Below, piece by piece: positions 5,131 to 16,508 of a stretch of 64,000 bases of DNA; within the stretch, counting starts at the first letter, position 1; each line of letters begins with the position of its first letter. The stretch spans positions 96,001-160,000 of the forward strand of contig OZ219786.1 in the NCBI GenBank assembly GCA_964291285.2, in the 5' to 3' direction. Position numbers and translations under genes: made by a program. The notes under the pieces were generated by a model. It saw only the letters and a list, made by a program, of their open reading frames with translations, had not been told where the DNA came from and searched no databases. This DNA comes from Alphaproteobacteria bacterium. Lineage in GTDB: Bacteria > Pseudomonadota > Alphaproteobacteria > Bin95.

Positions 5131-6713
5131 TCCGCATCATGGGCGAGACGCCGCATGCCGCCACGCTCCGCGATCTGGTGACGATGCGCGCTGCGCTCGG
5201 CGACAAGCCGCTGCTCATCTGCCGCGACGAGACCCTGACCTACGCCGATGCCGACCGGCTCTCGAACCGCGCCGCCAACGCACTGCTCCAGCGCGGCATA
5301 GGCAAGGGCGATGTGGTCGCGACCTTCATGTACAACTCGCTCGCGCAGGAGATCGTCTGGTTTGCCTGCGCCAAGATCGGCGCGGTTTACGCGGCCCTCA
5401 ATGTCTCGCTCGCGCGCGACGACCTCGCCTACAGCCTGAACGATACCGGCGCGAAGCTGCTGGTCGCGGACGACGAGCTGATGGATGTCTGCGAGGCGGC
5501 GGCGGACCGGTTTTCGTCTCCTCCGACAATTCTGGTGCATGGAGCGCCGCGCGCGGGATACGGCGCCTGGGAGGAGCTGCTGACAGGCTCGGAGGCGCTT
5601 CCCGAGGCGGAGGTGCGGCCGACCGACCCCGCGGCCATCGTCTATACGGGAGGCAGCACCTCCATGCCCAAGGGCGTGCTCGTCTCCCACCTCTATTACA
5701 TCGGCGCGGCCATTCGCTATGCGGAGATCGCCGAGGCCGGTCCCGACGACGTGCATTTTGCGAACTCGCATTTCTTCCATATCGGCGGCCAGCAATTCGG
5801 CGTCACCGGTCCGCTCTACACCGGCATGACCGGCGTGATGCACAAATGGTTCAGCGCCTCGCGCTACTGGGAGACTGTGCATCGACACGGCGCCACCATC
5901 ATCGACCCGCTGGGCACGATGATGTCCGTGCTGCTGCGCCGGCCGGAAAGCGGGCTCGACCGCTCGCACCGGGTAAAGGTCGGGGTGGGAATTGCGTCCG
6001 GCCAGGTGCGACGCGAGCTCCGCGACGAGTTCGAGGCCCGTTTCGGCATCCCGATGCTGGAGGTCTATGCGATGACGGAGATGGGCGTGCTGCTCTGCTC
6101 CGAGCGCCTGCACGACCGCAAGGCCGGCACCTGCGGCCGGCCGCACGGGTGGGCCGAAATCATGGTCGCAGATGCCGACGACAACCCGCTGCCTGCGGGC
6201 GAGACGGGCCAGCTGCTGCTGCGGCCCGGAGTGCCGAACACCTACATGATCGAGTACATCAACAAACCGGAGGCAACCCTCGCCGCCTGGCGGAATCTCT
6301 GGTACCACTCGGGCGATCTCGGCTGGCTCGACGAGGACGGCTATGTCCATTTCGTCGGCCGCGAGGCGCACTGGATCCGCCGGCGGGGCGAGAACGTCTC
6401 GGCCTTCGAGGTGGAGAAGGCGATCACGGCCCACGAGGCGGTGGTGGACTGCGCTTGCGTGGGCGTGCCCTCCGATCTCGGCGAAGAGGACATCAAGGCC
6501 TATGTGCAGGTCTCCGCGCCGGTCGAGCCGGGGGCGCTGGTCGAGTGGTGCCGGGAACGCATCGCCTATTTCAAGGCGCCGCGCTACGTCGAGTTCGTGG
6601 ACGAGTTCCCCCGCACGATGACCAAGAACGAAATCGCGCGCCACGAGTTGCGCGAACGCGGGATCGGTGCCTGCTGGGACGCGGAGGCGGATCGGATGGC
6701 GCCGGCTTCCTGA
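5127..6713 (+). CDS. AMP-dependent acyl-CoA ligase (CaiC-like)
   Basis: YTGGSTSMPKG, YAMTE, WYHSGDLG, IRRRGENVS motifs. Confidence 0.9.
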   Translation: MIRIMGETPHAATLRDLVTMRAALGDKPLLICRDETLTYADADRLSNRAANALLQRGIGKGDVVATFMYNSLAQEIVWFACAKIGAVYAALNVSLARDDLAYSLNDTGAKLLVADDELMDVCEAAADRFSSPPTILVHGAPRAGYGAWEELLTGSEALPEAEVRPTDPAAIVYTGGSTSMPKGVLVSHLYYIGAAIRYAEIAEAGPDDVHFANSHFFHIGGQQFGVTGPLYTGMTGVMHKWFSASRYWETVHRHGATIIDPLGTMMSVLLRRPESGLDRSHRVKVGVGIASGQVRRELRDEFEARFGIPMLEVYAMTEMGVLLCSERLHDRKAGTCGRPHGWAEIMVADADDNPLPAGETGQLLLRPGVPNTYMIEYINKPEATLAAWRNLWYHSGDLGWLDEDGYVHFVGREAHWIRRRGENVSAFEVEKAITAHEAVVDCACVGVPSDLGEEDIKAYVQVSAPVEPGALVEWCRERIAYFKAPRYVEFVDEFPRTMTKNEIARHELRERGIGACWDAEADRMAPAS

Positions 6714-6962
6714 CGGCGAGGCCTCGCCGGTCGTCAAAGCGTCGCCGCCCAAGGTCGGTCCGGTCGTTATTCGCTGCTCTTTCGGTGCGTTCATTTGCCT
6801 GCAGGCGTCGGTTCTTTCTCCGGTTCTCTTCTTCCGGGACATCGCATTGTTTCCGTTGCGCCGGGATGAAACCGGGCCGGACAAGCAGAGAAGCGACGCT
6901 GGCGCGGAGACGATTGGGCGCTATGATTGCGGCAACGCAAGCGGCGGGATTGGCCGGCAAGC

Positions 6963-7700
6963 ATGAGACTGCGGATCAAGTTGGGACTGGCATTCCTGGC
7001 CGGCGTTGCCCTTTCTCTCGCGCTGGTCGTATATGCCGCACTCGACACGTTCGACCGCGAACTCCGGACCGTTAAGGCGTCGCACTTCGGTTTCACCGTC
7101 GATGAAATCGCCCATGCGGTTACGGTCCGCACGGATCTGGGCCTTCGGCTCGAAACGATCCCGGAAATTGCGGCATTGCTGGACCGTACCCAGGCAGCCG
7201 ACCCGGATATCGACCGGTTGCTGGTTTTCGGAGCGGACGGCCGGGTCGTATTCTCCACCGACCAGACAGACCTCGGGACCACGATCGATGCCGGCGACCG
7301 GACCGGGCGCTGGATTGAGGCCGATGAGCGGGCGGTGACCGTGGGCAGCCCGCTGATCAACAATTTCGGCAAGGTGGTCGGAGGCGTCCTGCTGGAGAGC
7401 GAAGTCCGGCACAGCGCGCCGCTGCGCGAACGCGCGGCCATTACCGTTTTCGGCATTGCCGCCGGCGTATTCGCGGTCTGCCTCCTGCTCGTTTTCCTGT
7501 TTGCCCGCTGGGTGCTGCATCCGGTTCTCGACATGCTGAGGCGAAGCGACGCTTCGTTGCTGGCGATGGCGGAGGGCCAGACGGTAGAGCTGGAGGGGGC
7601 GCCGCCGTCGCTTGCGGGCTTCCATGACACTGCGGCGAGAATGCTGGCCACGATGGACGACGATGCGCGCGAGGTCGACCGGCTGGACCGGATCGGATGA
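6963..7700 (+). CDS. Membrane protein: TM-extracytoplasmic sensor-like domain-TM, no output domain
   Basis: ATG 6963 (MRLRIKLGLAFLAG); two hydrophobic segments flank DLGLRLETI...DPDIDRLLVFGADGRVVFSTD...PLINNFGKVVGGV; paralog of 13729-14481. Confidence 0.75.
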   Translation: MRLRIKLGLAFLAGVALSLALVVYAALDTFDRELRTVKASHFGFTVDEIAHAVTVRTDLGLRLETIPEIAALLDRTQAADPDIDRLLVFGADGRVVFSTDQTDLGTTIDAGDRTGRWIEADERAVTVGSPLINNFGKVVGGVLLESEVRHSAPLRERAAITVFGIAAGVFAVCLLLVFLFARWVLHPVLDMLRRSDASLLAMAEGQTVELEGAPPSLAGFHDTAARMLATMDDDAREVDRLDRIG

Positions 7701-10621
7701 CGGGCATGGGCCGGGTCTCGCGCATGATCTGCCTGAAAGCCTGCGCCGCCGCCATCGTGGTTGCGCTGTTGCAGGCGGTGCTGACGACCGCAGCGTTCCA
7801 CTGGTGGGCCGAGGAGCCGCTGACGGGCGAGCTCGACCGCAAGGCGCTCGCAGTCGGCCAGGCTATGAAGGCCGAGATGGAGCGTGCCGCCCGGGTCGGC
7901 ATCCCGCTCGAGGAGCTCCGGGGAGTCGAGCCATTCTTCCAGCGCTTCCTCGACGACAACCCGGACATACGCTTCATCGCAATGACCACGCCGGACAAGG
8001 AGCCGGTCTATTTCAGCGGCGTCGCGCGCGCCCGGCTGGAGAAAGTCCTTGAGTCGGCGGGGACCGCATTTGAGGAGCGCCGCCTGGCGGGAGGTATGAC
8101 GGAAGCCCGGAGCCGTCATACCTTCGGCGACCTTTCTGTCGATATCCGTCCGATAGGTCCGGCGGACTATCCACTCGCCCTCCTGCATGTCGCGGTCGAA
8201 AAGGGCTTCGTGACGCATGTGCTGCGTCGCAATTGGCCGGGCTTTGCCATTGCGGGCGTGGTCGGCATCGTCGTCGGGCTGCTGTGCACGGTCGTTCTGA
8301 CATTGCGGGTCGGCCGGCGGTTGCAACGATTCGATAACGGAATCGCGCAAGCGGCCGGCGGCCACCCGGTGCTGCTCGCGGATCTGGGGCAGCGGGACGA
8401 AATCGGCTATGCCGCCCGCGCATTCAATGCGGTGCTGCACGGCCTCCGCACGCGATATGACGAAACCCTGGATCAGGCGGAGGACGCCCGGGACGCCGCG
8501 GTCGGCCGGACGGTGCGGGATTCGCTGGAACGCATTCGCCGGGGGCTGGTCCAGAGGCTGGAGCCCGCCTTCCGCGACATTCCCCCGACGCCGCCCACCG
8601 CGGTCGGCCGCTTCGGCCGGAATGTCTCGATACGCCTGCGTCTGACGGCAATCATCAGCCTTGCGGGGCTTCTGCTGGCGATAGGCCTCGGCTATGGCAG
8701 CATCGTGCGTGAGCGCCTTCTTGCCGAAAGCTATAACGAAGACCGCCAGACGGCATTGAAGACCGTCTGGAAGACCCTGTCGCAGCGCGAGACGGACACG
8801 GTCGCACGCCTGCTGGCCCCGTTGCGCGCCAACGAAGACGTCCGGGCCGCGCTTCTCGCCGGCGATACACTGCTTGCCGCGCGCCTGATCGAGGATCTTT
8901 CCGTGGGGAGCGGAATTGAACGGCTCGTGACGTTCGACCCCTCGGAAGGGGCAGGGGGGCGCCTATTCGTAGGCCGCAACCCCCTGTCGCCGCGCGTGGC
9001 CAAGCGAATCGTCGATACCGGGACGCGGGCAAGCGGCGGCGACATCGACGCCGACGGACAACCGGTCTGGACGGTTGCGGAGGCCCTCGGAGACCCGGAC
9101 CGGGGCGATGTGTTGATCGTTGCCGCAAGCCTCCCGCTTGCCTCCGCGGTGCAGGAAGCGGGGGCGGTCCTCGGTGGAGAAGCCTTTCTGGTCGGGAGCG
9201 AGGGCGGACTGATCTTCGGCACCAACCCGCCGCTCTGGCAAGGTCTGGACCAGAACAGTGCGGACTATGCCACGACGACAACGAACATCCCGGCCCTGAA
9301 CGGCGGGCGCCTTTCCGGCCTGCATGTCGTCTCCGATGTCAGCGAACTCGCCGCGCGGCAGCAGGCGCTGCGTATTGCCTATTTCGGAGCAGCGGCAGTT
9401 TTCGCCTGCATTGCCCTTTGGGCGCTCTATGCGAATCTGAGCGGCTCCCTGCAGCCGCTCGACCGTGTGATCGGCGTACTGGAGGCGCTCTCCGACGGCC
9501 GTCGCGGCGTGTGGCTCGAACAGGAGGCCGGCAGGGACGAAATCGCCCGCATCGCCAGGGCGGTCGAGGCGTATCGAAGTTCCCTGGGCGAGGTCGAACG
9601 CCTGTCAGCTGAGCGCCGCCGGGCGCAACGGCGGCGCGAACGCTTCCTGCGCCAGCAGATGGCCGGACTGACGTCGGCTGTGGGCGCGGAGGCCCGCCAG
9701 GCCGTTACGGACCAGCTCGCCGAGCTTGAACGGGAAGGCGCCAGCGACGAGTTCGAAGCTCTCACGCTCGTGTTCGAACAGATGGCGCAGCGCATTCGCG
9801 AACAGCATGGACGCCTGACCGAGCTGGTCGAGGAACTGCGCGAGGCGCTCAAGCACAAGGAGCGCCTGGTCGCGATCGAGCGCGAGCTGTCCATCGCGCA
9901 CGACTTGCAACTCTCGGTGCTGCCGCGCGAGACGCCGCCGCAGCGTACCGTCGAGATCGCGGCGCAGATGCTCCCGGCCAAGGAGGTCGGCGGCGACTTC
10001 TACGACTATTTCGCCATCGACGAACAGCGCATCGGACTCGTCATCGCGGATGTCTCGGGCAAGGGCATCCCGGCCGCCTTCTTCATGCTGATTGCGCGCA
10101 CCCTGCTCAAGGCTACCGCTCTGATCGGCGAGTCGCCGGGCCGGGTGCTGACCGCGTTGAACGACATGCTGGAGGCAGAGAACGAGCAGATGATGTTCGT
10201 GACCGCCTTCTATGCAGTCGTGAATACCGAAACCGGCCATGTGACCTTCGCCAACGCCGGACATAATCCGACTTACCGGATCGACGGTGGGGGGCAGCTA
10301 TCGACTCTGCCGATGGATCCCGGCCTGGCGCTCGCCATCATGCCGGGATTCGATTTCGAGGAGGGAGAGACGACGCTGGCGCCGGGCGACACGCTGTTCC
10401 TCTACACGGACGGCGTGAACGAGGCCTTCAACGAAGCGGGCGAACAATTCGGCGAACCGCGCCTGGAAGCGGAACTGGCGGCCCATGCAGACGCCTCGCC
10501 GGCCATCATTTGCGATGCGATGCGCGCCTCGGTCGAGGAATTCTCGACAGGAGTCGAGCAGAGCGACGACATCACCACGGTGGCGGTGCGCTATCTGGGA
10601 AACGGTCCGGCCGCGTCCTGA
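7697..10621 (+). CDS. Membrane sensor PP2C/SpoIIE-family Ser/Thr phosphatase with two TM-sensor-TM-HAMP modules
   Basis: EVGGDFYD, IADVSGKGIPAA, NAGHNP, LYTDGVNEA, QSDDIT PP2C motifs; two HAMP-like RDEIG/RDEIA segments. Confidence 0.9.
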   Translation: MTGMGRVSRMICLKACAAAIVVALLQAVLTTAAFHWWAEEPLTGELDRKALAVGQAMKAEMERAARVGIPLEELRGVEPFFQRFLDDNPDIRFIAMTTPDKEPVYFSGVARARLEKVLESAGTAFEERRLAGGMTEARSRHTFGDLSVDIRPIGPADYPLALLHVAVEKGFVTHVLRRNWPGFAIAGVVGIVVGLLCTVVLTLRVGRRLQRFDNGIAQAAGGHPVLLADLGQRDEIGYAARAFNAVLHGLRTRYDETLDQAEDARDAAVGRTVRDSLERIRRGLVQRLEPAFRDIPPTPPTAVGRFGRNVSIRLRLTAIISLAGLLLAIGLGYGSIVRERLLAESYNEDRQTALKTVWKTLSQRETDTVARLLAPLRANEDVRAALLAGDTLLAARLIEDLSVGSGIERLVTFDPSEGAGGRLFVGRNPLSPRVAKRIVDTGTRASGGDIDADGQPVWTVAEALGDPDRGDVLIVAASLPLASAVQEAGAVLGGEAFLVGSEGGLIFGTNPPLWQGLDQNSADYATTTTNIPALNGGRLSGLHVVSDVSELAARQQALRIAYFGAAAVFACIALWALYANLSGSLQPLDRVIGVLEALSDGRRGVWLEQEAGRDEIARIARAVEAYRSSLGEVERLSAERRRAQRRRERFLRQQMAGLTSAVGAEARQAVTDQLAELEREGASDEFEALTLVFEQMAQRIREQHGRLTELVEELREALKHKERLVAIERELSIAHDLQLSVLPRETPPQRTVEIAAQMLPAKEVGGDFYDYFAIDEQRIGLVIADVSGKGIPAAFFMLIARTLLKATALIGESPGRVLTALNDMLEAENEQMMFVTAFYAVVNTETGHVTFANAGHNPTYRIDGGGQLSTLPMDPGLALAIMPGFDFEEGETTLAPGDTLFLYTDGVNEAFNEAGEQFGEPRLEAELAAHADASPAIICDAMRASVEEFSTGVEQSDDITTVAVRYLGNGPAAS

Positions 10622-11619
10622 CCCCACTGCCGGTCGAGGCTTGTAGCAAGAATGTGCTCGACCAGGGCCTCCGAGGATATGCCTGCACGCGCCGCGCTTT
10701 GCGCGAAGGCCATCGCACCGCCGATCGAGCAGGCGAGATTGAACTCGAGGAAGGCATGTCCCGAGGGACCGAACCGGAAATCGCAGCGCAGATAGTCGTA
10801 TGGCTCCACCGCTCTCGCGAACCGCAGGGCATCTTCAACAATGGGCTTGAGCCAGGGCTCATCACCGGGGAACTCGCGTGTGAGGCCGGGTTCCAGCTTC
10901 CGTTTCTGACGGTGGGTGAACAGCCCGTAAGGACTGTCGCATGTCTGGGTAGCAGGGGGCAGGGCCACCGGCCCGTTATCGCCTACCAGGATCGGCACCG
11001 TCACGTCGAAGTCGCCGAAGACCTGCTCGACAAGGCACTCGTCGATGGTGGCCCCGAGAGCCGCGATCCGCGGTTCGAGAGCACCGAAATCCTCTTGCGC
11101 GCTCGAGGCGTCGATGCCTGTCGATGCGGCGCCAAAACGCGGCTTGGCGACATAGGGCCCGTCGAAGTCCGGCTTCCGCACCGGGCCGTTTCCCGCGAAC
11201 ACTTTCCCGTCCGGCGCCGGTATGCCGAGCGCCCGCGCCGCCAGCTTGCTCAGCCACTTGTCCTCAGCGAGCGCGCGAATGTTCGCCGGTGCGCCCATAC
11301 AGGCGATGCCGGCTTTCGCCGCCATAGCGGAGACGTAGATCTCGGAATTCCGGAACGGCGCAATGTTGTAGAGCGAGAAAACGTAATTCCGGCCTTCGAA
11401 GGCCTGGGGTACGACGTCGAGATCGGAACTGCTGTCGACATCCAGGCCGAGACCGTTTCGCAGCACATCCCAGATCTCATACTGGTAGGCCGGCTGCACG
11501 CCGTAATCCGGATGGATGTCTGGAGGCCTGGGTGTGTCGGGTGACGGCGCATGAGGCGCCAGATACAGGATTTTGAGCGCGGCGCGGCGTTTGTCGTCCA
11601 GACGTTTCAGGGCGATCAA
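10591..11619 (-). CDS. ATP-grasp ligase, D-Ala-D-Ala ligase-like (paralog 1)
   Basis: ALAEDKWLSK, PYVAKPRFGAASTGI, YLRCDFR, FLEFN ATP-grasp motifs. Confidence 0.8.
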   Translation of the reverse strand: MIALKRLDDKRRAALKILYLAPHAPSPDTPRPPDIHPDYGVQPAYQYEIWDVLRNGLGLDVDSSSDLDVVPQAFEGRNYVFSLYNIAPFRNSEIYVSAMAAKAGIACMGAPANIRALAEDKWLSKLAARALGIPAPDGKVFAGNGPVRKPDFDGPYVAKPRFGAASTGIDASSAQEDFGALEPRIAALGATIDECLVEQVFGDFDVTVPILVGDNGPVALPPATQTCDSPYGLFTHRQKRKLEPGLTREFPGDEPWLKPIVEDALRFARAVEPYDYLRCDFRFGPSGHAFLEFNLACSIGGAMAFAQSAARAGISSEALVEHILATSLDRQWGQDAAGPFPR

Positions 11620-12629
11620 GAATCGGCTCCGGTCTTTATGAATTGGGCGAAGCGCAGGATTTCCATGGGCGGATACACCTTCAGCTTGTGCGCCGTTTCC
11701 ATGTTGACCACGAAGGAGAACCGGGAGAGCGTTTCGATGGGGATGTCGCCGGGGTCCTTGCCGCCGGTGAGAATCTGCTCCGCCTTGAAGGCCGCGAATT
11801 GCCCGACCGCGTAGAGCGGGCTGACGAGCCCCGTCATGCAGTGCTGCCGGATCAGGGTCTCCACGCCGCAGAAGGTCGGCAGGCCGAGTTCAGTTGCAGT
11901 GCGGGTCACCAACTCGGCATGGGCGCCGAAGAAGTTGGACGGCGGGATATAGAGGAAATCGACTCCGGCCTGTTTCAGGCGCCGGAGCGCCGGCTCTATC
12001 TGGGCCGGGTCCCGTTCGACCTTGGGCTCCGTCGGGCTGTCGGAGACGAATTCGATGCCGGATTCCTCCACCAGCGTCCGCATGGAGGCCTCGGTGCGGC
12101 GCTGTGCGCCCGAGCTCTTGTCGTAGAGCATGCCGAGCTTCTCGAAGGGCATGTAGGTGCGCATCGCGTTGAGGCGCACGAGGTTCGAAACGACGTGCAT
12201 TGCCCCGGTGATGTTGCGCTTCGAAAGCATCGGCGCCGCCGGGTCCGGAGGCTGGGGCACCAGTTTCGACCGGGCAGGAAACGAGACCATCGAAAACACG
12301 ACGGGAATGTCGAGGACATGCTTCTGGGGATCGGCCTCTTCAAGCCGCCCGACGACCGCGCGCGTCACCGAGGTTGTCTGGGTATAGACGAGGTCGGGCT
12401 TGAGCGCCTTGATTTCCTCGACATAGCCCGGGAGGCGGGACCGGTCGTTCTCCATGTCGCGAAGGACGAAGTTGGCATCGACGCCGTTTGCCGTCAGGTA
12501 GTCGCGAAAGCCGTCATCCGCGCCTGACCCGGCGCGATGCACGATCATGTAGATGGTGAAGGGGTCGGCTTGGGAAGCCGGGGCCGCCACGGTCGAGATG
12601 GCGAACGCCAGCAATAGCACTCGTAACAT
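11616..12629 (-). CDS. Periplasmic solute-binding protein (ABC_sub_bind-like)
   Basis: Signal peptide MLRVLLLAFAISTVAAPASQA from ATG 12629; IPVVFSMV, AEQILTGGKDPGDIPIETLSRFSFVVNMETA C-terminal motif. Confidence 0.85.
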   Translation of the reverse strand: MLRVLLLAFAISTVAAPASQADPFTIYMIVHRAGSGADDGFRDYLTANGVDANFVLRDMENDRSRLPGYVEEIKALKPDLVYTQTTSVTRAVVGRLEEADPQKHVLDIPVVFSMVSFPARSKLVPQPPDPAAPMLSKRNITGAMHVVSNLVRLNAMRTYMPFEKLGMLYDKSSGAQRRTEASMRTLVEESGIEFVSDSPTEPKVERDPAQIEPALRRLKQAGVDFLYIPPSNFFGAHAELVTRTATELGLPTFCGVETLIRQHCMTGLVSPLYAVGQFAAFKAEQILTGGKDPGDIPIETLSRFSFVVNMETAHKLKVYPPMEILRFAQFIKTGADS

Positions 12630-12721
12630 GGGAGGCGGGTCCGCTGCGTTGCCGGTGGAAGGGTTGACAGCTATCATACGCTGGTTCCCTGTAATTTCGA
12701 CACACATCTGGCCAATTTGGG

Positions 12722-13732
12722 ATGCTCGAGCTGTTACAAATCGGCCCGGACCGGCGTGAGGAGCTGGATATCCTGTTTCTCGCCAAATATGCGGAGGACT
12801 GGACCGAACCGCCGCCCACAGTGCATCCGCGTTACGGGCGCGAGCTCTACACCAAGTTCGAGGTACTTTCGGTCCTGCGGGGCCTGGCGCGCTCTGTGGA
12901 GCCCTGCGCCAGCCTCGAGGCCTTCGAAGAACGCATGCGCCGCAAGCCGGCTCCCGACTACATCTTCCAGATCTACAACCGGGAGCCCGTACGCAACCCC
13001 GAGATACTGGTGTCCGCACTCTGCGCGCGCACGGGCGTTCCCTATCTTGGCAGCCCGCCCAATGTGCGCGCCATGGCAGAGGACAAGTGGATTACCAAGC
13101 TGATGGCCCGGGCCGCGGGCCTGTCGGTGCCCGAAGGCGCCGTGGCGGTCGCCAGGGCCGATCTTGACGAACCGCCCGGTTTCGACGGGCCTTATTTCGT
13201 CAAGCCCCGCTTCGGCGCCAACTCCGAAGGTGTCGATGAAGGCTCGATCTGCGATGGCTGGGAAGAAGCGCGGTCACGGGCATCGGCTCTGCTGGCGGCC
13301 GGTGAGGAGGCGCTGATCGAGACGCTGGCGCCCGGCCTCGACGTGACCGTGCCGGTGCTGGGCGGGCCTCTTGCGCTTCATCCCGTCGCCAACCATTCCG
13401 AACTGCGCGAAGGCGTGCAGACCGAAGGGCAAAAGCGCTTTCTGGAGCCCGGAAAGCGGGGCGAGCCGTTCGACGACGCCGCGCTTTGCGAAGAACTCCG
13501 GGAGGCGGCGGTTGCGTTCGCGAAGCTGGTGCAGCCCTGCGACTATCTCAGGGTCGATTTCCGGGTCGCGCCGGACCGGTCCTTCCGCCTGCTCGAGTTC
13601 AATGTCACCTGCAACCTGGCGACGGTCATGTCCATGAATGTCGGCGCAGGCGCCGCGGGCGTGTCGCATGCGGCGATGATCGAGCATTTCCTCTGCTACA
13701 GCATGCAGCGTCAGGGGCTGCTGGCGGCATGA
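12722..13732 (+). CDS. ATP-grasp ligase, D-Ala-D-Ala ligase-like (paralog 2)
   Basis: AMAEDKWITK, PYFVKPRFGANSEGV, YLRVDFR, LLEFN; aligns by eye with 10591-11619. Confidence 0.8.
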   Translation: MLELLQIGPDRREELDILFLAKYAEDWTEPPPTVHPRYGRELYTKFEVLSVLRGLARSVEPCASLEAFEERMRRKPAPDYIFQIYNREPVRNPEILVSALCARTGVPYLGSPPNVRAMAEDKWITKLMARAAGLSVPEGAVAVARADLDEPPGFDGPYFVKPRFGANSEGVDEGSICDGWEEARSRASALLAAGEEALIETLAPGLDVTVPVLGGPLALHPVANHSELREGVQTEGQKRFLEPGKRGEPFDDAALCEELREAAVAFAKLVQPCDYLRVDFRVAPDRSFRLLEFNVTCNLATVMSMNVGAGAAGVSHAAMIEHFLCYSMQRQGLLAA

Positions 13733-14481
13733 GGCTGCTGATTGTCCTGAACGGCGCTTTCCTTTGCGCCTTCGCGGTGACGATGGCGCTGATGATCCTG
13801 CTCAACCAGCAGAAGTTCTCCGACATCCTGCGCGGGCTGGACGATTCCCGGGTTTCGGTCGTCACGCTCGACACGTCCCGCCGGCTGCGGCAGGCCGTGG
13901 ACCTCGGGCTGCCTCTCAAGGACATCGCCGAGAGCCGGGCCATGGTGGAGGCGCTGGTCGCGGAGTATCCGGAACTTCAGTCCGTCAGCATTTTCGATGC
14001 GGGGGGCAGGCTGCTTGTGCATGGCGGCAACGAGTTGAGTGGCGGAGAGTCGGAGGCGCCCCGGGCGTGGAGCGCCGGCAACCGGGAGGCGGCCGGGGAG
14101 GTCTGGCGCATCGAGGACCCGGAATCCTTCGTGGTCGGCGCGCCCGTCATCAACAATTTCGGGAAGCTCGAGGGAGGGGTGGCGGTTCGCTACAGCAAGG
14201 CGCGCTTCAGCAGCATCGTTGAAGGATTGACGACCGAGCTCCTGGAAGCCGCGGTTCTCATCTTTATTGCCAGCGGACTGCTGGCGGTGCTGGGAACCGC
14301 CGCCGCGCTCTGGAGATTGACCAGGACCGCCCGTTATCTGCGTCAAAGTGTTGAAAACCTTCTGAAGCAGGATTCTGGCGAAACGCCGGCGGATACCGAC
14401 CTCGCCGAATTCGTTGGCTACAGCGCTTCCGTGCGGGAAACGGCGGCGACGCTGGCGGATGCCGAAAGGAACGTGCGGTGA
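13729..14481 (+). CDS. Membrane protein: TM-extracytoplasmic sensor-like domain-TM, no output domain
   Basis: ATG 13729 overlaps upstream stop; AVDLGLPLKDI...YPELQSVSIFDAGGRLL...PVINNFGKLEGGV. Confidence 0.75.
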   Translation: MRLLIVLNGAFLCAFAVTMALMILLNQQKFSDILRGLDDSRVSVVTLDTSRRLRQAVDLGLPLKDIAESRAMVEALVAEYPELQSVSIFDAGGRLLVHGGNELSGGESEAPRAWSAGNREAAGEVWRIEDPESFVVGAPVINNFGKLEGGVAVRYSKARFSSIVEGLTTELLEAAVLIFIASGLLAVLGTAAALWRLTRTARYLRQSVENLLKQDSGETPADTDLAEFVGYSASVRETAATLADAERNVR

Positions 14482-16508
14482 CCCCCGACCGCGACGACCG
14501 CCGACGGGCCCCGACCCTTGCGGGCATCGGCATCCGCATCGGTTTCGTCGCCGTGGTGGCTCTCGTGGCCGCCAATGCGTTCTTGGCCTGGATCGCGCTC
14601 GGCGCGGTCGAGACGAGGCTGGAGCCCGTCATCAAGGACAAGGCGCACGTCCTGGCCCGGTCGATTGCCAACGACCTCTACACGGCAGTGCGCCTCGATA
14701 TTCCGGTCCAGGGGCTGAGAGGTGTCGACGCCTATCTGGACGACCTGCTGACGGACCATCCGGAGGTTGCCTATCTCGCCGTGACCGACGCCGGGGGCAA
14801 GGTGCTGTTCTCGGCGGAGGCCAGCGGCGATGTAGAGGTCAGTTCCTACCCATTGGCCGCGAATGCCGGCACTTTCGTTTCGATCGGCTCCGACTACAAC
14901 ATCGCGCATCCCCTGGTTCATGGCGGCAAGCAGGTCGGACACGCAATGGTCGGGATAGACCGGCGCTATGTCCGCAACACCATGGCCGGCATTTTCACCG
15001 ATATCGGCATTTCGCTGTGTGTCGCCATCCTGATCGTTCTCGAACTCACCCTGCTGGTGCTGTCGCTTACGGTCGCCCGGTCCATCGGCCTGATGAGGCG
15101 GCTGATGCACGCCGTCAGCGAAGGGGACTTCTCGGCTTCCATAACCACGCGCGGACGGGACGATCTGGCCCGGGTCATCGATGCGATGAATGGCATCAAT
15201 ACCGAGATCAACCGGCGTTTCCGCGCATTGGTAGCCACCGGCGGCGCCGTCGAAAGGCTTCGGGAGGGGCGGGTGTTCGCCGAGGCGGGCGCCTACCGGC
15301 CCGTGCAGGTGCTGCGCGCCGGAGACGTGCAGTATCCGCTGTTCTTCTTCATTTTCGGCGTCGAGCTGTCGCGTCCGTTCTTCCCCCTCTTCGTGCGCGA
15401 CCTTTACGATCCCGCGCTCGGCATCGACGCCTCGATCGCGATCGCCATGCCGATGTCGGTCTGGGTGGTCGCGATGCTGTTCACGACGCCGCTCGCGCCG
15501 ACGCTGATCCGGCGCCTCGGCACGCGCAACACGCTGCTGCTCGGCATGGCGCCTACGAGCGTCGGCCTCATCGCGACGGCTTTCGCGACCGGGTTCATCG
15601 AACTCATTGCGTGGCGTTGCGTGACGGCGGCGGGCTTCGGCCTCGTCACCGCTGCAATTCTCGTCCGGCTCGCCATCACGGCGCCGGAACGGCGGCGCGC
15701 GCTCAATATCGGCGTGTTCGTCACGGCCACGGGCGGCGGCAGCATCTGCGCGACCGCAATCGGAGGCATCCTCGCCGAACGGCTGGGGTACGAGAACACC
15801 TTTATCGTCGGGGCGACTATCGTCTTCGTCGCCATGACGATCACCTACGGCTTCCTGTCGTCGGAGGAAGGGGTCGGGTCCAGCATTGGCACGCCGACCC
15901 AACGCAGGCGGCTGGGAATTTACGGCAGTCCGAGATTCATGACATTCATGGCCCTCTCGGCCCTGCCGTCACGGACCGTGCTCACCGGCTTCCTGTTCTT
16001 CCTGGTGCCGCTTTATCTCGATTCGCTCGATTTCGGCGGAGCGGCCATCGGGCGCACCATGATGGTCTATTTCCTGGTGCTGCTGGTCATGAACCAGGCG
16101 GCGGCGCTGATCGCCGACAGGTTCCAGAACCACGGCATGCTGATCGTCGTTGGCGGGATCTCGGTTGCAGCGGGCTGCCTGCTGTTCGTTTCCACGGCCG
16201 ACGCCTTGCTGCTGGCCTGCGGCGTTGCGCTGATCGGGCTCGGCCAGTCCTTCGTGATGACACCGCAAGTGGCTGTGCTGCCGACTTATTTCAGGTCCGA
16301 AACGGAGGCCTTTGGCACCGGCCCGGTAACGGCGGCGTTCCGGGTGGTGGAGCGCGCCGGCAGCATTGCCGGCCCCCTTCTTGCCGGGAGCATCGTTGCC
16401 TTCGCCGGGCTGCAGCATGCGGGCCGGCTGCTCGGCTACGGCATAGCGGTCACGACCCTGTTTCTGGCCCTGCTGCTTGTCGTTGGCGTGTTCACCCGCC
16501 GGCGCTGA
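14478..16508 (+). CDS. MFS transporter with N-terminal TM-sensor-TM-HAMP extension
   Basis: HAMP-like VSEGDFSASITTRGRDDLAR, then many TM helices with MFS-like LIRRLGTR, GGILAERLG, IADRF motifs. Confidence 0.85.
   Translation: MTPDRDDRRRAPTLAGIGIRIGFVAVVALVAANAFLAWIALGAVETRLEPVIKDKAHVLARSIANDLYTAVRLDIPVQGLRGVDAYLDDLLTDHPEVAYLAVTDAGGKVLFSAEASGDVEVSSYPLAANAGTFVSIGSDYNIAHPLVHGGKQVGHAMVGIDRRYVRNTMAGIFTDIGISLCVAILIVLELTLLVLSLTVARSIGLMRRLMHAVSEGDFSASITTRGRDDLARVIDAMNGINTEINRRFRALVATGGAVERLREGRVFAEAGAYRPVQVLRAGDVQYPLFFFIFGVELSRPFFPLFVRDLYDPALGIDASIAIAMPMSVWVVAMLFTTPLAPTLIRRLGTRNTLLLGMAPTSVGLIATAFATGFIELIAWRCVTAAGFGLVTAAILVRLAITAPERRRALNIGVFVTATGGGSICATAIGGILAERLGYENTFIVGATIVFVAMTITYGFLSSEEGVGSSIGTPTQRRRLGIYGSPRFMTFMALSALPSRTVLTGFLFFLVPLYLDSLDFGGAAIGRTMMVYFLVLLVMNQAAALIADRFQNHGMLIVVGGISVAAGCLLFVSTADALLLACGVALIGLGQSFVMTPQVAVLPTYFRSETEAFGTGPVTAAFRVVERAGSIAGPLLAGSIVAFAGLQHAGRLLGYGIAVTTLFLALLLVVGVFTRRR

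Follow-up and report, generated by a model that had tools for sequence, protein, structure and literature searches.

Seven genes in three translationally coupled units

This study concerns a seven-gene membrane locus within a 64,000-nucleotide stretch of an alphaproteobacterial genome (Alphaproteobacteria bacterium, assembly GCA_964291285.2, contig OZ219786.1, positions 96,001 to 160,000), to which we refer as the window. The genes, designated A to G (Table 1), encode two short membrane proteins that we call stubs (A and F), a membrane phosphatase (B), two ATP-grasp ligases (C and E), a periplasmic binding protein (D), and a fusion of a sensor to a transporter of the major facilitator superfamily (MFS) (G). 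Our data show that this locus is an elaborated copy of a widespread, undescribed three-gene membrane unit.

The original prediction, made from the window's sequence alone, had placed the genes in three coupled units (A-B, D-C, and E-F-G), the last two diverging from a shared region of ~90 bp. This layout was confirmed, with 4-base start/stop overlaps (ATGA for A/B and E/F, TTGA for D/C, and GTGA for F/G) and a D-E spacer of 92 bp. C has a TTG start codon that overlaps the stop codon of D, and an alternative TTG start for A occurs at position 6927. Only two sigma-70-like matches were found between positions 6600 and 16900, both in the D-E spacer and one on each strand, compared with 1.1 ± 1.1 in shuffles, a weak statistic given so few matches. 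Some of the genes are paralogous: C and E share 41% identity, A and F share 30%, and B and G show weak similarity at their N-termini (E 1e-6).

Records holding this stretch or close relatives of it are annotated as sponge, coral, and marine metagenomes. In addition, three RNA libraries from three studies yielded contigs with 90-95% identity to the window; between them, these contigs include parts of every one of the seven genes and span the A/B, C/D, and E/F junctions. These contigs are a hint only, as DNA may be present in the libraries; they show neither transcripts nor levels, and uncovered bins are uninformative.

Table 1. Features of the seven-gene locus (positions in the window)
Feature	Position	Strand	Description
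A	6963-7700	+	Stub 1, 245 aa; open reading frame; no Pfam family
B	7697-10621	+	Membrane phosphatase, 974 aa; Pfam SpoIIE 179 bits, HAMP 32 bits
C	10591-11619	-	ATP-grasp ligase 1, 342 aa, Ddl fold; Dala_Dala_lig_C 21.4 bits (cut-off 24)
D	11616-12629	-	Periplasmic binding protein, 337 aa; ABC_sub_bind PF04392 58 bits
D-E spacer	12630-12721		Divergent intergenic region, 92 bp; one promoter-like consensus match per strand
E	12722-13732	+	ATP-grasp ligase 2, 336 aa, Ddl fold; Dala_Dala_lig_C 26.7 bits
F	13729-14481	+	Stub 2, 250 aa; Pfam: only a sub-threshold dCache_1 match
G	14478-16508	+	Sensor-transporter fusion, 676 aa; MFS_1 95 bits; HAMP 24.1 bits (cut-off 25)

A three-gene core is conserved across phyla

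For a transporter-side view, metagenome contigs were scanned with the sensor-MFS alignment. The scan yielded 78 loci, corresponding to 63, 38, and 17 clusters at 90, 70, and 50% identity, and these were mapped with hidden Markov models of the stub, sensor, binding protein, and ATP-grasp families. For other loci of high GC content, neighborhoods were mapped by gene calling guided by GC content at third codon positions and by homology. In all 61 loci with 900 nt or more of flank, a stub lay upstream of the sensor-MFS, and a PF04392 binding protein was present in 61 of the 64 loci with at least 1200 nt downstream, directly following the transporter in 55 of the 64. When only loci with at least 3 kb on both flanks were considered (n = 34), we found the stub in 34, the binding protein in 33, PP2C in 12, and ATP-grasp in 6; dereplication at 70% identity (n = 24) left 24, 23, 10, and 3, respectively. 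Collectively, the invariant unit is made up of the stub, the sensor-HAMP-MFS protein, and the PF04392 binding protein. Given the low counts of ATP-grasp and PP2C genes among the well-flanked loci, the ligases and the phosphatase fall outside this core and are optional, lineage-specific add-ons.

Members of the core unit occur in Alpha- and Betaproteobacteria, in Myxococcota, and in many metagenome lineages, and the full seven-gene layout is found within the genus. The operons of Corallococcus, Cystobacter, and Hyalangium encode, in order, the stub, the sensor-MFS, an ATP-grasp ligase, and the binding protein, with 4-base overlaps, and metagenome-assembled genomes (MAGs) of Burkholderiales have the same gene order. 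In Zavarzinia, a sensor-MFS/ATP-grasp unit lies beside a binding protein/stub/sensor/PP2C unit, and Azospirillum brasilense has the stub, the HAMP-MFS, and the PF04392 gene, in this order, on a chromid (about 341-345 kb of NZ_CP059450.1). Conservation across phyla places the arrangement far outside the reach of chance. The original prediction had treated all seven genes as one functional set. The genes do form a set, but its conserved core comprises three of them, and neither the ligases nor the phosphatase are among these.

Individual loci differ in detail. In one genome of the same genus, the binding-protein gene of the main locus is broken into three fragments (L021:9492-9904; 88%, 74%, and 58% identical), and the gap between C and E is only ~500 bp. 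On another contig, the same assembly carries a second, intact pair of binding protein and ATP-grasp 2 genes, followed by a LysR regulator gene (L024:8894-12060). Corallococcus exercitus has another MFS with an N-terminal extension (773 aa), together with a PF04392 binding protein (398 aa), encoded divergently upstream of the main operon (L036:2224-5734), with a Porin_O_P gene (5733-7121) in between. Four neighbor clusters of the metagenome loci (0, 1, 5, and 7) were discarded as Arg/Ala/Gly-rich artifacts of alternative reading frames.

The sensor module is coupled to a DHA1-like transporter

G consists of a first transmembrane (TM) helix, a PDC/Cache-like domain (residues ~83-161), a second TM helix, a probable HAMP domain (~195-253), and a 12-TM, DHA1-like MFS domain (282-675). 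Its AlphaFold2 (AF2) model (pLDDT 80.6, pTM 0.76) has a long first helix, an alpha/beta domain, a long second helix that runs into a helical hairpin, a short linker, and the 12 MFS helices. By the positive-inside rule, the alpha/beta domain would be periplasmic and the HAMP domain cytoplasmic. The stubs resemble the sensor half of G: A, which aligns with the stub family, has a TM helix, a periplasmic Cache-like domain, a second TM helix, and a short tail, and F has the same arrangement with a HAMP-like tail of ~50 aa. In relatives HAMP is recognized, at 23.1 (L025), 38.3 (Azospirillum), and 33.4 bits (P0202), and sCache_3_2 was found in two further relatives (P0261 and P0203).

Comparison of the MFS family profile with the PDB gave VAChT, VMAT, NorA, EmrB, and QacA as the best matches, and VMAT, NorA, and MdfA ranked at the top of a Foldseek search with G. 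Alignment of the G family with Escherichia coli MdfA by hhalign had a probability of 91%, with motifs A, B, and C in register. The best-conserved part of the sensor-MFS family is a motif C-like stretch (GTAIGGIL / GPSIGGIL), motif C being the antiporter motif in TM5 of MFS proteins. In addition, many invariant glycines, prolines, and arginines are retained. By these motifs the MFS domain is DHA1-like, belonging to the 12-TM drug:H+ antiporter branch, with antiport as its predicted function. It resembles MdfA, NorA, VMAT, and VAChT in its 12 TM helices, but none of those transporters is known to have a stub as partner, a binding protein of its own, or an N-terminal periplasmic sensor with HAMP.

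When the N-terminal 270 residues were used for an exhaustive profile search, they retrieved 222 representatives (clusters at 50% identity) at E<=1e-30 and 1444 at E<=1e-10. Among 42 of the best 150 relatives scanned with Pfam, 29 carry an MFS domain, 2 a SpoIIE domain, and 11 nothing or only HAMP or sCache; no kinase, GGDEF, or methyl-accepting chemotaxis protein domain was found in these 42. A word-indexed search with residues 1-280 of G returned 62 matches, close relatives only and nearly all of them sensor-MFS proteins. Judging from these domain architectures, the sensor module is dedicated to a transporter (or PP2C) output.

Twelve sensor relatives (846-1005 aa) have two sensor stretches ahead of the MFS, and the N-terminus of one of them, P0212, matches the stub alignment with an hhalign probability of 99.6%. 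Predicted single-chain stub-sensor-MFS fusions thus exist in nature, and the occurrence of the stub and the sensor-MFS in one chain argues for their joint function.

The binding protein appears to have no ABC partner

D begins with a signal peptide ending in ASQA and is the sole PF04392 match in the genome. A search of the genome with the permease of a canonical PF04392 ATP-binding cassette (ABC) operon (Collinsella) detected only Liv-type BPD_transp_2 proteins, at 24 and 20 bits. This result supports the prediction that D has no ABC partner.

The matches of D to solved structures (3lkv, 6hni, and 3lft) are weak (E 3e-5). The three solved PF04392 proteins are reported to bind Trp, Tyr, and Phe (PMC10443332, Table 1; PMC6816091), and for CD0873 the side-chain selectivity residues are named (PMC6816091). 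Assignment of a ligand to D from these structures was abandoned, as D is too distant (E 3e-5).

The ATP-grasp ligases are distinct from Ddl

On the Ddl model TIGR01205, C and E score 39.4 and 41.9 bits, far below the cut-off of 245.65, while the genome's own Ddl, encoded elsewhere (G000:C2:558896-559777), scores 275.3 bits. By profile, Ddl is the closest solved family to the 18-member ligase family (4e-24), and the AF2 model of E (pLDDT 93.5) is most similar to DdlB and DdlA (E 1e-20; TM-score 0.76-0.82). Alignment with E. coli DdlB showed that K97, K144, E180, R255, D257, E270, and N272 (DdlB numbering), the catalytic and ATP/Mg residues, are invariant. The substrate site was compared by sequence alignment only, at the presumed D-Ala-binding positions of DdlB (E15, H63, and the S281/L282 segment). 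At the position of E15, 7 of the 8 family rows, that of C included, have Pro and only E has Glu; H63 is replaced by Y, L, F, or M; and the S281/L282 segment is not conserved.

By these scores, C and E are not housekeeping Ddl enzymes, as the original prediction required. Their catalytic and ATP-binding residues are kept and the D-Ala positions are not; C and E are thus active-looking, putative amide-forming ligases, with a specificity that may differ from that of Ddl. They share the three-domain ATP-grasp fold and the ATP and Mg residues with Ddl, VanA, and L-amino-acid ligases such as BacD, but differ from Ddl in their low family scores, in the loss of the N-terminal D-Ala1 site, and in forming a separate clade. 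BacD sits with the MFS exporter BacE, and a ligase accompanied by an MFS exporter is usual for dipeptide antibiotics. It is most likely that C and E would make an exported amide or dipeptide-like compound.

A full-length E orthologue was found in 13 of 16 other genomes of the genus, with a contig-end fragment in one more, and all 8 genomes examined from other genera of the family gave a weak E match at best. A ligase search of the species collection returned 194 stretches encoding relatives, of which 66 loci were kept and mapped by tblastn. In a quick maximum-likelihood tree of 81 family members and two Ddl sequences (the careful search was unfinished), C falls in a clade of its own and the family is split from Ddl by a very long branch. 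The 29 members that lack MFS and binding-protein neighbors form one clade (SH-aLRT 90). As for the remaining ligases, 48 of 52 lie within 4.5 kb of the MFS and/or the binding-protein gene. The four that do not are found on a contig of just 1.7 kb, at two loci of Thiomargarita, and, as a third copy, in a single genome. The co-conservation of ATP-grasp genes with the other families therefore depends on the side from which it is viewed: most of these ligases have an MFS or binding-protein neighbor, but few of the core loci have a ligase.

The clade without such neighbors includes four Firmicutes loci (L052, L056, L062, and L068; Clostridia and Enterococcus caccae), in which the ligase gene lies beside that of a ~770-aa TPR protein. 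A RimK/R2K-like second ATP-grasp gene is found in 3 of the 4 and a tyrosine recombinase gene in three, and these loci look like a mobile island. In Alphaproteobacteria (L046, L048, L051, L054, and L058; Magnetospirillum, Rhodopseudomonas, and related MAGs), the recurring neighbors of this clade are a DUF2478/DUF4213/DUF364 'metal chelation' gene and genes for an SBP_bac_6 binding protein, ABC ATPases, and a nitroreductase. A nitrogenase-like Oxidored_nitro gene is also present there (by Pfam in L054, and by membership of the same cluster in L048 and L058).

A phosphatase and other signaling genes accompany some loci

B has a G-like N-terminal sensor module followed by another periplasmic domain, then HAMP, a coiled coil, and a SpoIIE/PP2C domain, and is the sole SpoIIE match in the genome. 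In relatives, the counterparts of residues 36-278 and 312-974 of B belong to two separate genes, for a sensor-MFS and a PP2C, respectively, and B looks like a fusion of the sensor module to a phosphatase. Of the metagenome loci with PP2C, 8 contain STAS genes and 6 contain HATPase_c_2 genes; in L025, a HATPase_c_2 gene follows the PP2C gene. The window's genome has two stand-alone HATPase_c_2 genes and several STAS genes, all away from the locus. On this gene content, the PP2C arm is a predicted partner-switching arm, and B could plausibly be the only phosphatase feeding a partner-switching network whose other genes are dispersed. B is comparable to SpoIIE, RsbU, and SiaA in its SpoIIE domain, in the HAMP that precedes it, and in the STAS/RsbW-like genes that follow PP2C in relatives. 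It differs from them in having two periplasmic domains and a stub partner, and in that the partner-switching genes lie outside the locus; it is not an equivalog of SiaA (82.7 bits, compared with a cut-off of 700).

The two stand-alone HATPase_c_2 kinases are RsbW-like proteins of 143 and 144 aa (G000:C3:1673124-1673504 and G000:C3:2027546-2027923), and neither adjoins a STAS or phosphatase gene. One follows mfd, and the other lies between a gene for a TctC-family binding protein and one for a short-chain dehydrogenase/reductase (SDR).

Further signaling genes adjoin particular loci. In three Burkholderiales/betaproteobacterial MAGs, a membrane protein with dCache, adenylate/guanylate cyclase, and cNMP-binding domains is encoded next to the operon (L031:3781-6426, L034:3933-6461, and L042:7835-9967; assigned by Pfam for the first two and by clustering with L034 for L042), and this protein may be another signaling output of the sensor module. 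In one sub-lineage (a subset of L115-L161), we observed genes for an alpha/beta hydrolase in 21 loci, a Tll0287-like GGDEF protein in 14, and a PAS hybrid histidine kinase in 12; in a different sub-lineage, 9 loci encode a Ser/Thr kinase that has dCache and HAMP domains. These neighbors in L115-L161 may reflect synteny of the lineage, not function.

The genes flanking the locus in the window

The 13 annotated flanking open reading frames (bases 21-26207) are metabolic and housekeeping genes, except for two without a family. Their products include a luciferase-like monooxygenase, a CoA-transferase, an acyl-CoA ligase, a thiamine pyrophosphate enzyme, and an SDR, as well as RlpA-like and DacC-like proteins, Tmk, HolB, MetG, and TatD. 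No gene for an ABC permease or ATPase, a histidine kinase, a response regulator, a STAS protein, or an anti-sigma factor was found in these flanks, which bears out what had been noted for the locus.

Proposed mechanism

We favor, at a probability of roughly 40%, a reading in which G is a gated MFS transporter that is informed by the binding protein, relayed by HAMP, and assisted by the stub, with a biosynthetic arm and a signaling arm added in this genus. F and the sensor half of G are paralogues, each built of a TM helix, a single Cache-like domain, a second TM helix, and a HAMP domain or HAMP-like tail, and would pair into a heterodimeric receptor with a single output, the MFS domain of G. 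Secreted D would dock on the periplasmic face of this receptor, and the HAMP bundle would relay its ligand occupancy to the MFS domain, making G a ligand-gated transporter. HAMP domains act as dimers; with the stub as the second receptor half, a dimeric sensor could drive one monomeric transporter. G would most likely export a cytoplasmic solute by H+ antiport, and in this genus C and E would most likely supply it as an amide or dipeptide-like compound. A and B, the other addition of the genus, would be a second stub/sensor pair, with PP2C as its output, feeding STAS and RsbW-type proteins encoded elsewhere. The broader claim, that a heterodimeric Cache/HAMP receptor reads a binding protein and gates an attached MFS through HAMP as a new class of receptor-coupled transporter, we consider evenly balanced.

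There are precedents for the receptor half of this scheme. In LuxP-LuxQ, TorT-TorS, and ChvE-VirA, a binding protein is encoded beside a membrane receptor with a PDC/PAS-like periplasmic domain. The receptor reports the ligand state of the binding protein across the membrane, as proposed here. Unlike in those systems, the output here is an MFS or PP2C domain and not a histidine kinase, the receptor is apparently a heterodimer of a full chain and an output-less stub, and the binding protein belongs to PF04392. A further likeness is to the SLC5/STAC histidine kinases CbrA and CrbS, which also unite transporter and signaling domains in one polypeptide; in these, the transporter-like domain is reported to be the input to the kinase (PMC9100948), whereas here the sensor and HAMP would be the input to the transporter. 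In the open-access literature searched, we found no account of HAMP fused to an MFS, of an MFS coupled to a binding protein, or of the present set of genes.

Docking of D on the stub-sensor pair received weak support from a three-chain structure prediction. Mature D with residues 1-260 of G and F gave ipSAE values of 0.45, 0.45, and 0.43, compared with 0.00 for all three controls. In calibration, 116 of 157 solved complexes attained the mark for docking, as did 2 of 215 mismatches; only 18 of the 157 solved complexes, but both mismatches, did so at 0.60 or below. The original prediction that the binding protein presents its ligand to a receptor is consistent with this result, but its further step, that the ligand is the ligase product, is conjecture. 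Likewise, the resemblance of the MFS to H+-antiport exporters fits the predicted movement of a small molecule, but to equate the ligase product with the cargo or with the ligand of D would be speculation.

Several observations weigh against the favored reading. The complex score falls in a range in which passing scores are wrong more often than right, except where the complex was likely beforehand. Pfam found no HAMP in the stubs A and F, and that of G, at 24.1 bits, falls under the cut-off of 25. Most core loci have no biosynthetic gene (ATP-grasp occurs in 6 of 34), which means that in general a ligase product cannot be the cargo. The similarity of the MFS domain in fold and motifs leaves the direction of transport undecided, because the symporters sialin and DgoT score within two to three logs of the best Foldseek matches, and the NCBIfam matches of G mix efflux and symport families at weak scores, which is uninformative on direction. 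A gene of a phosphate-porin family precedes the Corallococcus operon and could point to anion uptake. Finally, all known binding-protein-dependent transport systems are importers, so that the strict conservation of the binding protein agrees with uptake no less than with export; by precedent, such a protein marks either uptake or sensing. Given the DHA1-like character of the MFS and its motifs A, B, and C in register with MdfA, we lean modestly toward export by G and regard import as distinctly less probable.

Alternative explanations

Uptake is the basis of the most serious alternative, a binding-protein-dependent MFS importer, which would form a tripartite class beside ABC, tripartite ATP-independent periplasmic (TRAP), and tripartite tricarboxylate transporter (TTT) systems. 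The binding protein would capture a solute, the stub and the Cache-like domain would serve for docking, the MFS would import, and the ligases would conjugate or trap the substrate. The invariant trio of a stub, a sensor-MFS, and a PF04392 protein mirrors the tripartite trios DctPQM and TctCBA, in which a binding protein likewise works with a small membrane protein and a large secondary transporter and without an ATPase. The resemblance ends at the parts themselves: the large subunit here is a DHA1-type MFS and not DctM or TctA, the small one is a 2-TM Cache-like protein and not a 4-TM DctQ or TctB, HAMP intervenes, the binding protein is of another family, and transport may be outward. Indeed, Pfam detected no TRAP or TTT subunit, with G matching MFS_1 and HAMP, F nothing, and D PF04392. 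An importer would agree with the absence of an ABC partner for D from the genome, the porin gene upstream in Corallococcus, and a core that usually has no biosynthetic gene, as well as with the nutrient amino acids (Trp, Tyr, and Phe) reported as ligands of the three solved PF04392 proteins (PMC10443332, PMC6816091). It is harder to reconcile with an MFS that is closest to H+-antiport exporters by sequence profile, fold, and motif C. Moreover, a HAMP domain between the docking domain and the transporter would be unneeded for simple hand-over of a substrate, and a sensor module that also drives a phosphatase points to signaling rather than delivery. On balance, we consider an importer unlikely.

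Two further explanations are improbable, to a similar degree. In the first, the binding protein is an acceptor, to which the MFS hands over the exported compound for onward carriage. A shared operon and a proposed hand-over have been described for the mycobacterial MFS Rv1410 and the lipoprotein LprG (PMC6519032), and here too an exporter-like MFS and a binding protein share an operon. An acceptor would leave the Cache-like domains, the HAMP, the obligate stub, and the wiring of the sensor module to PP2C unexplained; moreover, the ligands reported for solved PF04392 proteins are small amino acids and not lipids (PMC10443332, PMC6816091).

In the second, the protein is purely a signaling receptor, its MFS being a non-transporting scaffold or co-sensor and its outputs the neighboring PP2C, cyclase, GGDEF, and kinase proteins. 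The neighbor clusters that would speak for such a role comprise STAS, HATPase_c_2, GGDEF, hybrid histidine kinase, and Ser/Thr kinase genes, along with the dCache-adenylate cyclase gene beside Burkholderiales loci and PP2C in 12 of the 34 well-flanked loci. However, 22 of those 34 have no PP2C, some of the signaling neighbors are confined to one sub-lineage and may be mere synteny, and the MFS domain retains motifs A, B, and C together with its invariant glycines, prolines, and arginines, as in an active transporter.

The last alternative, a chance cluster of spare D-Ala-D-Ala ligases and the binding protein of a distant ABC importer, could appeal to Ddl as the closest solved family and to the cell-wall genes (RlpA-like and DacC-like) 3-5 kb downstream, but is largely refuted by the low TIGR01205 scores of C and E (39 and 42 bits, compared with 245.65) beside a true Ddl elsewhere (275 bits), the loss of the DdlB substrate positions, the absence from the genome of a close homologue of a PF04392-type permease, and synteny with the MFS and binding protein across Alphaproteobacteria, Burkholderiales, and Myxococcota.

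Significance

To the original prediction the present analysis adds the three-gene core with its counts, the DHA1 assignment, the natural fusions, the weak docking result, and a tractable host, Azospirillum brasilense. HAMP domains are familiar as signal relays whose targets are kinases, cyclases, chemoreceptor tips, and phosphatases; MFS transporters are regarded as autonomous monomers; and binding proteins are usually seen as partners of sensor kinases or of ABC, TRAP, or TTT importers. The family described here joins all three in at least 222 sequence clusters (50% identity, E<=1e-30). If the gated-transporter reading is correct, this would be the first case of HAMP signaling to a transporter, in which an extracellular receptor switches transport directly, with gene expression unchanged. 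Depending on direction, the unit would act either as an exporter under feedback control, setting how much of a self-made metabolite is present in the periplasm or outside the cell, or as a binding-protein-dependent uptake system of a fourth kind, and it would offer a natural chassis for ligand-gated transport. Since the unit is present in A. brasilense, which is cultivable and non-pathogenic, these possibilities are directly testable. The obligate, output-less stub would be a simple answer to the problem of a dimeric receptor that drives a monomeric output, and the ligases added in this genus suggest a secreted amide or dipeptide.

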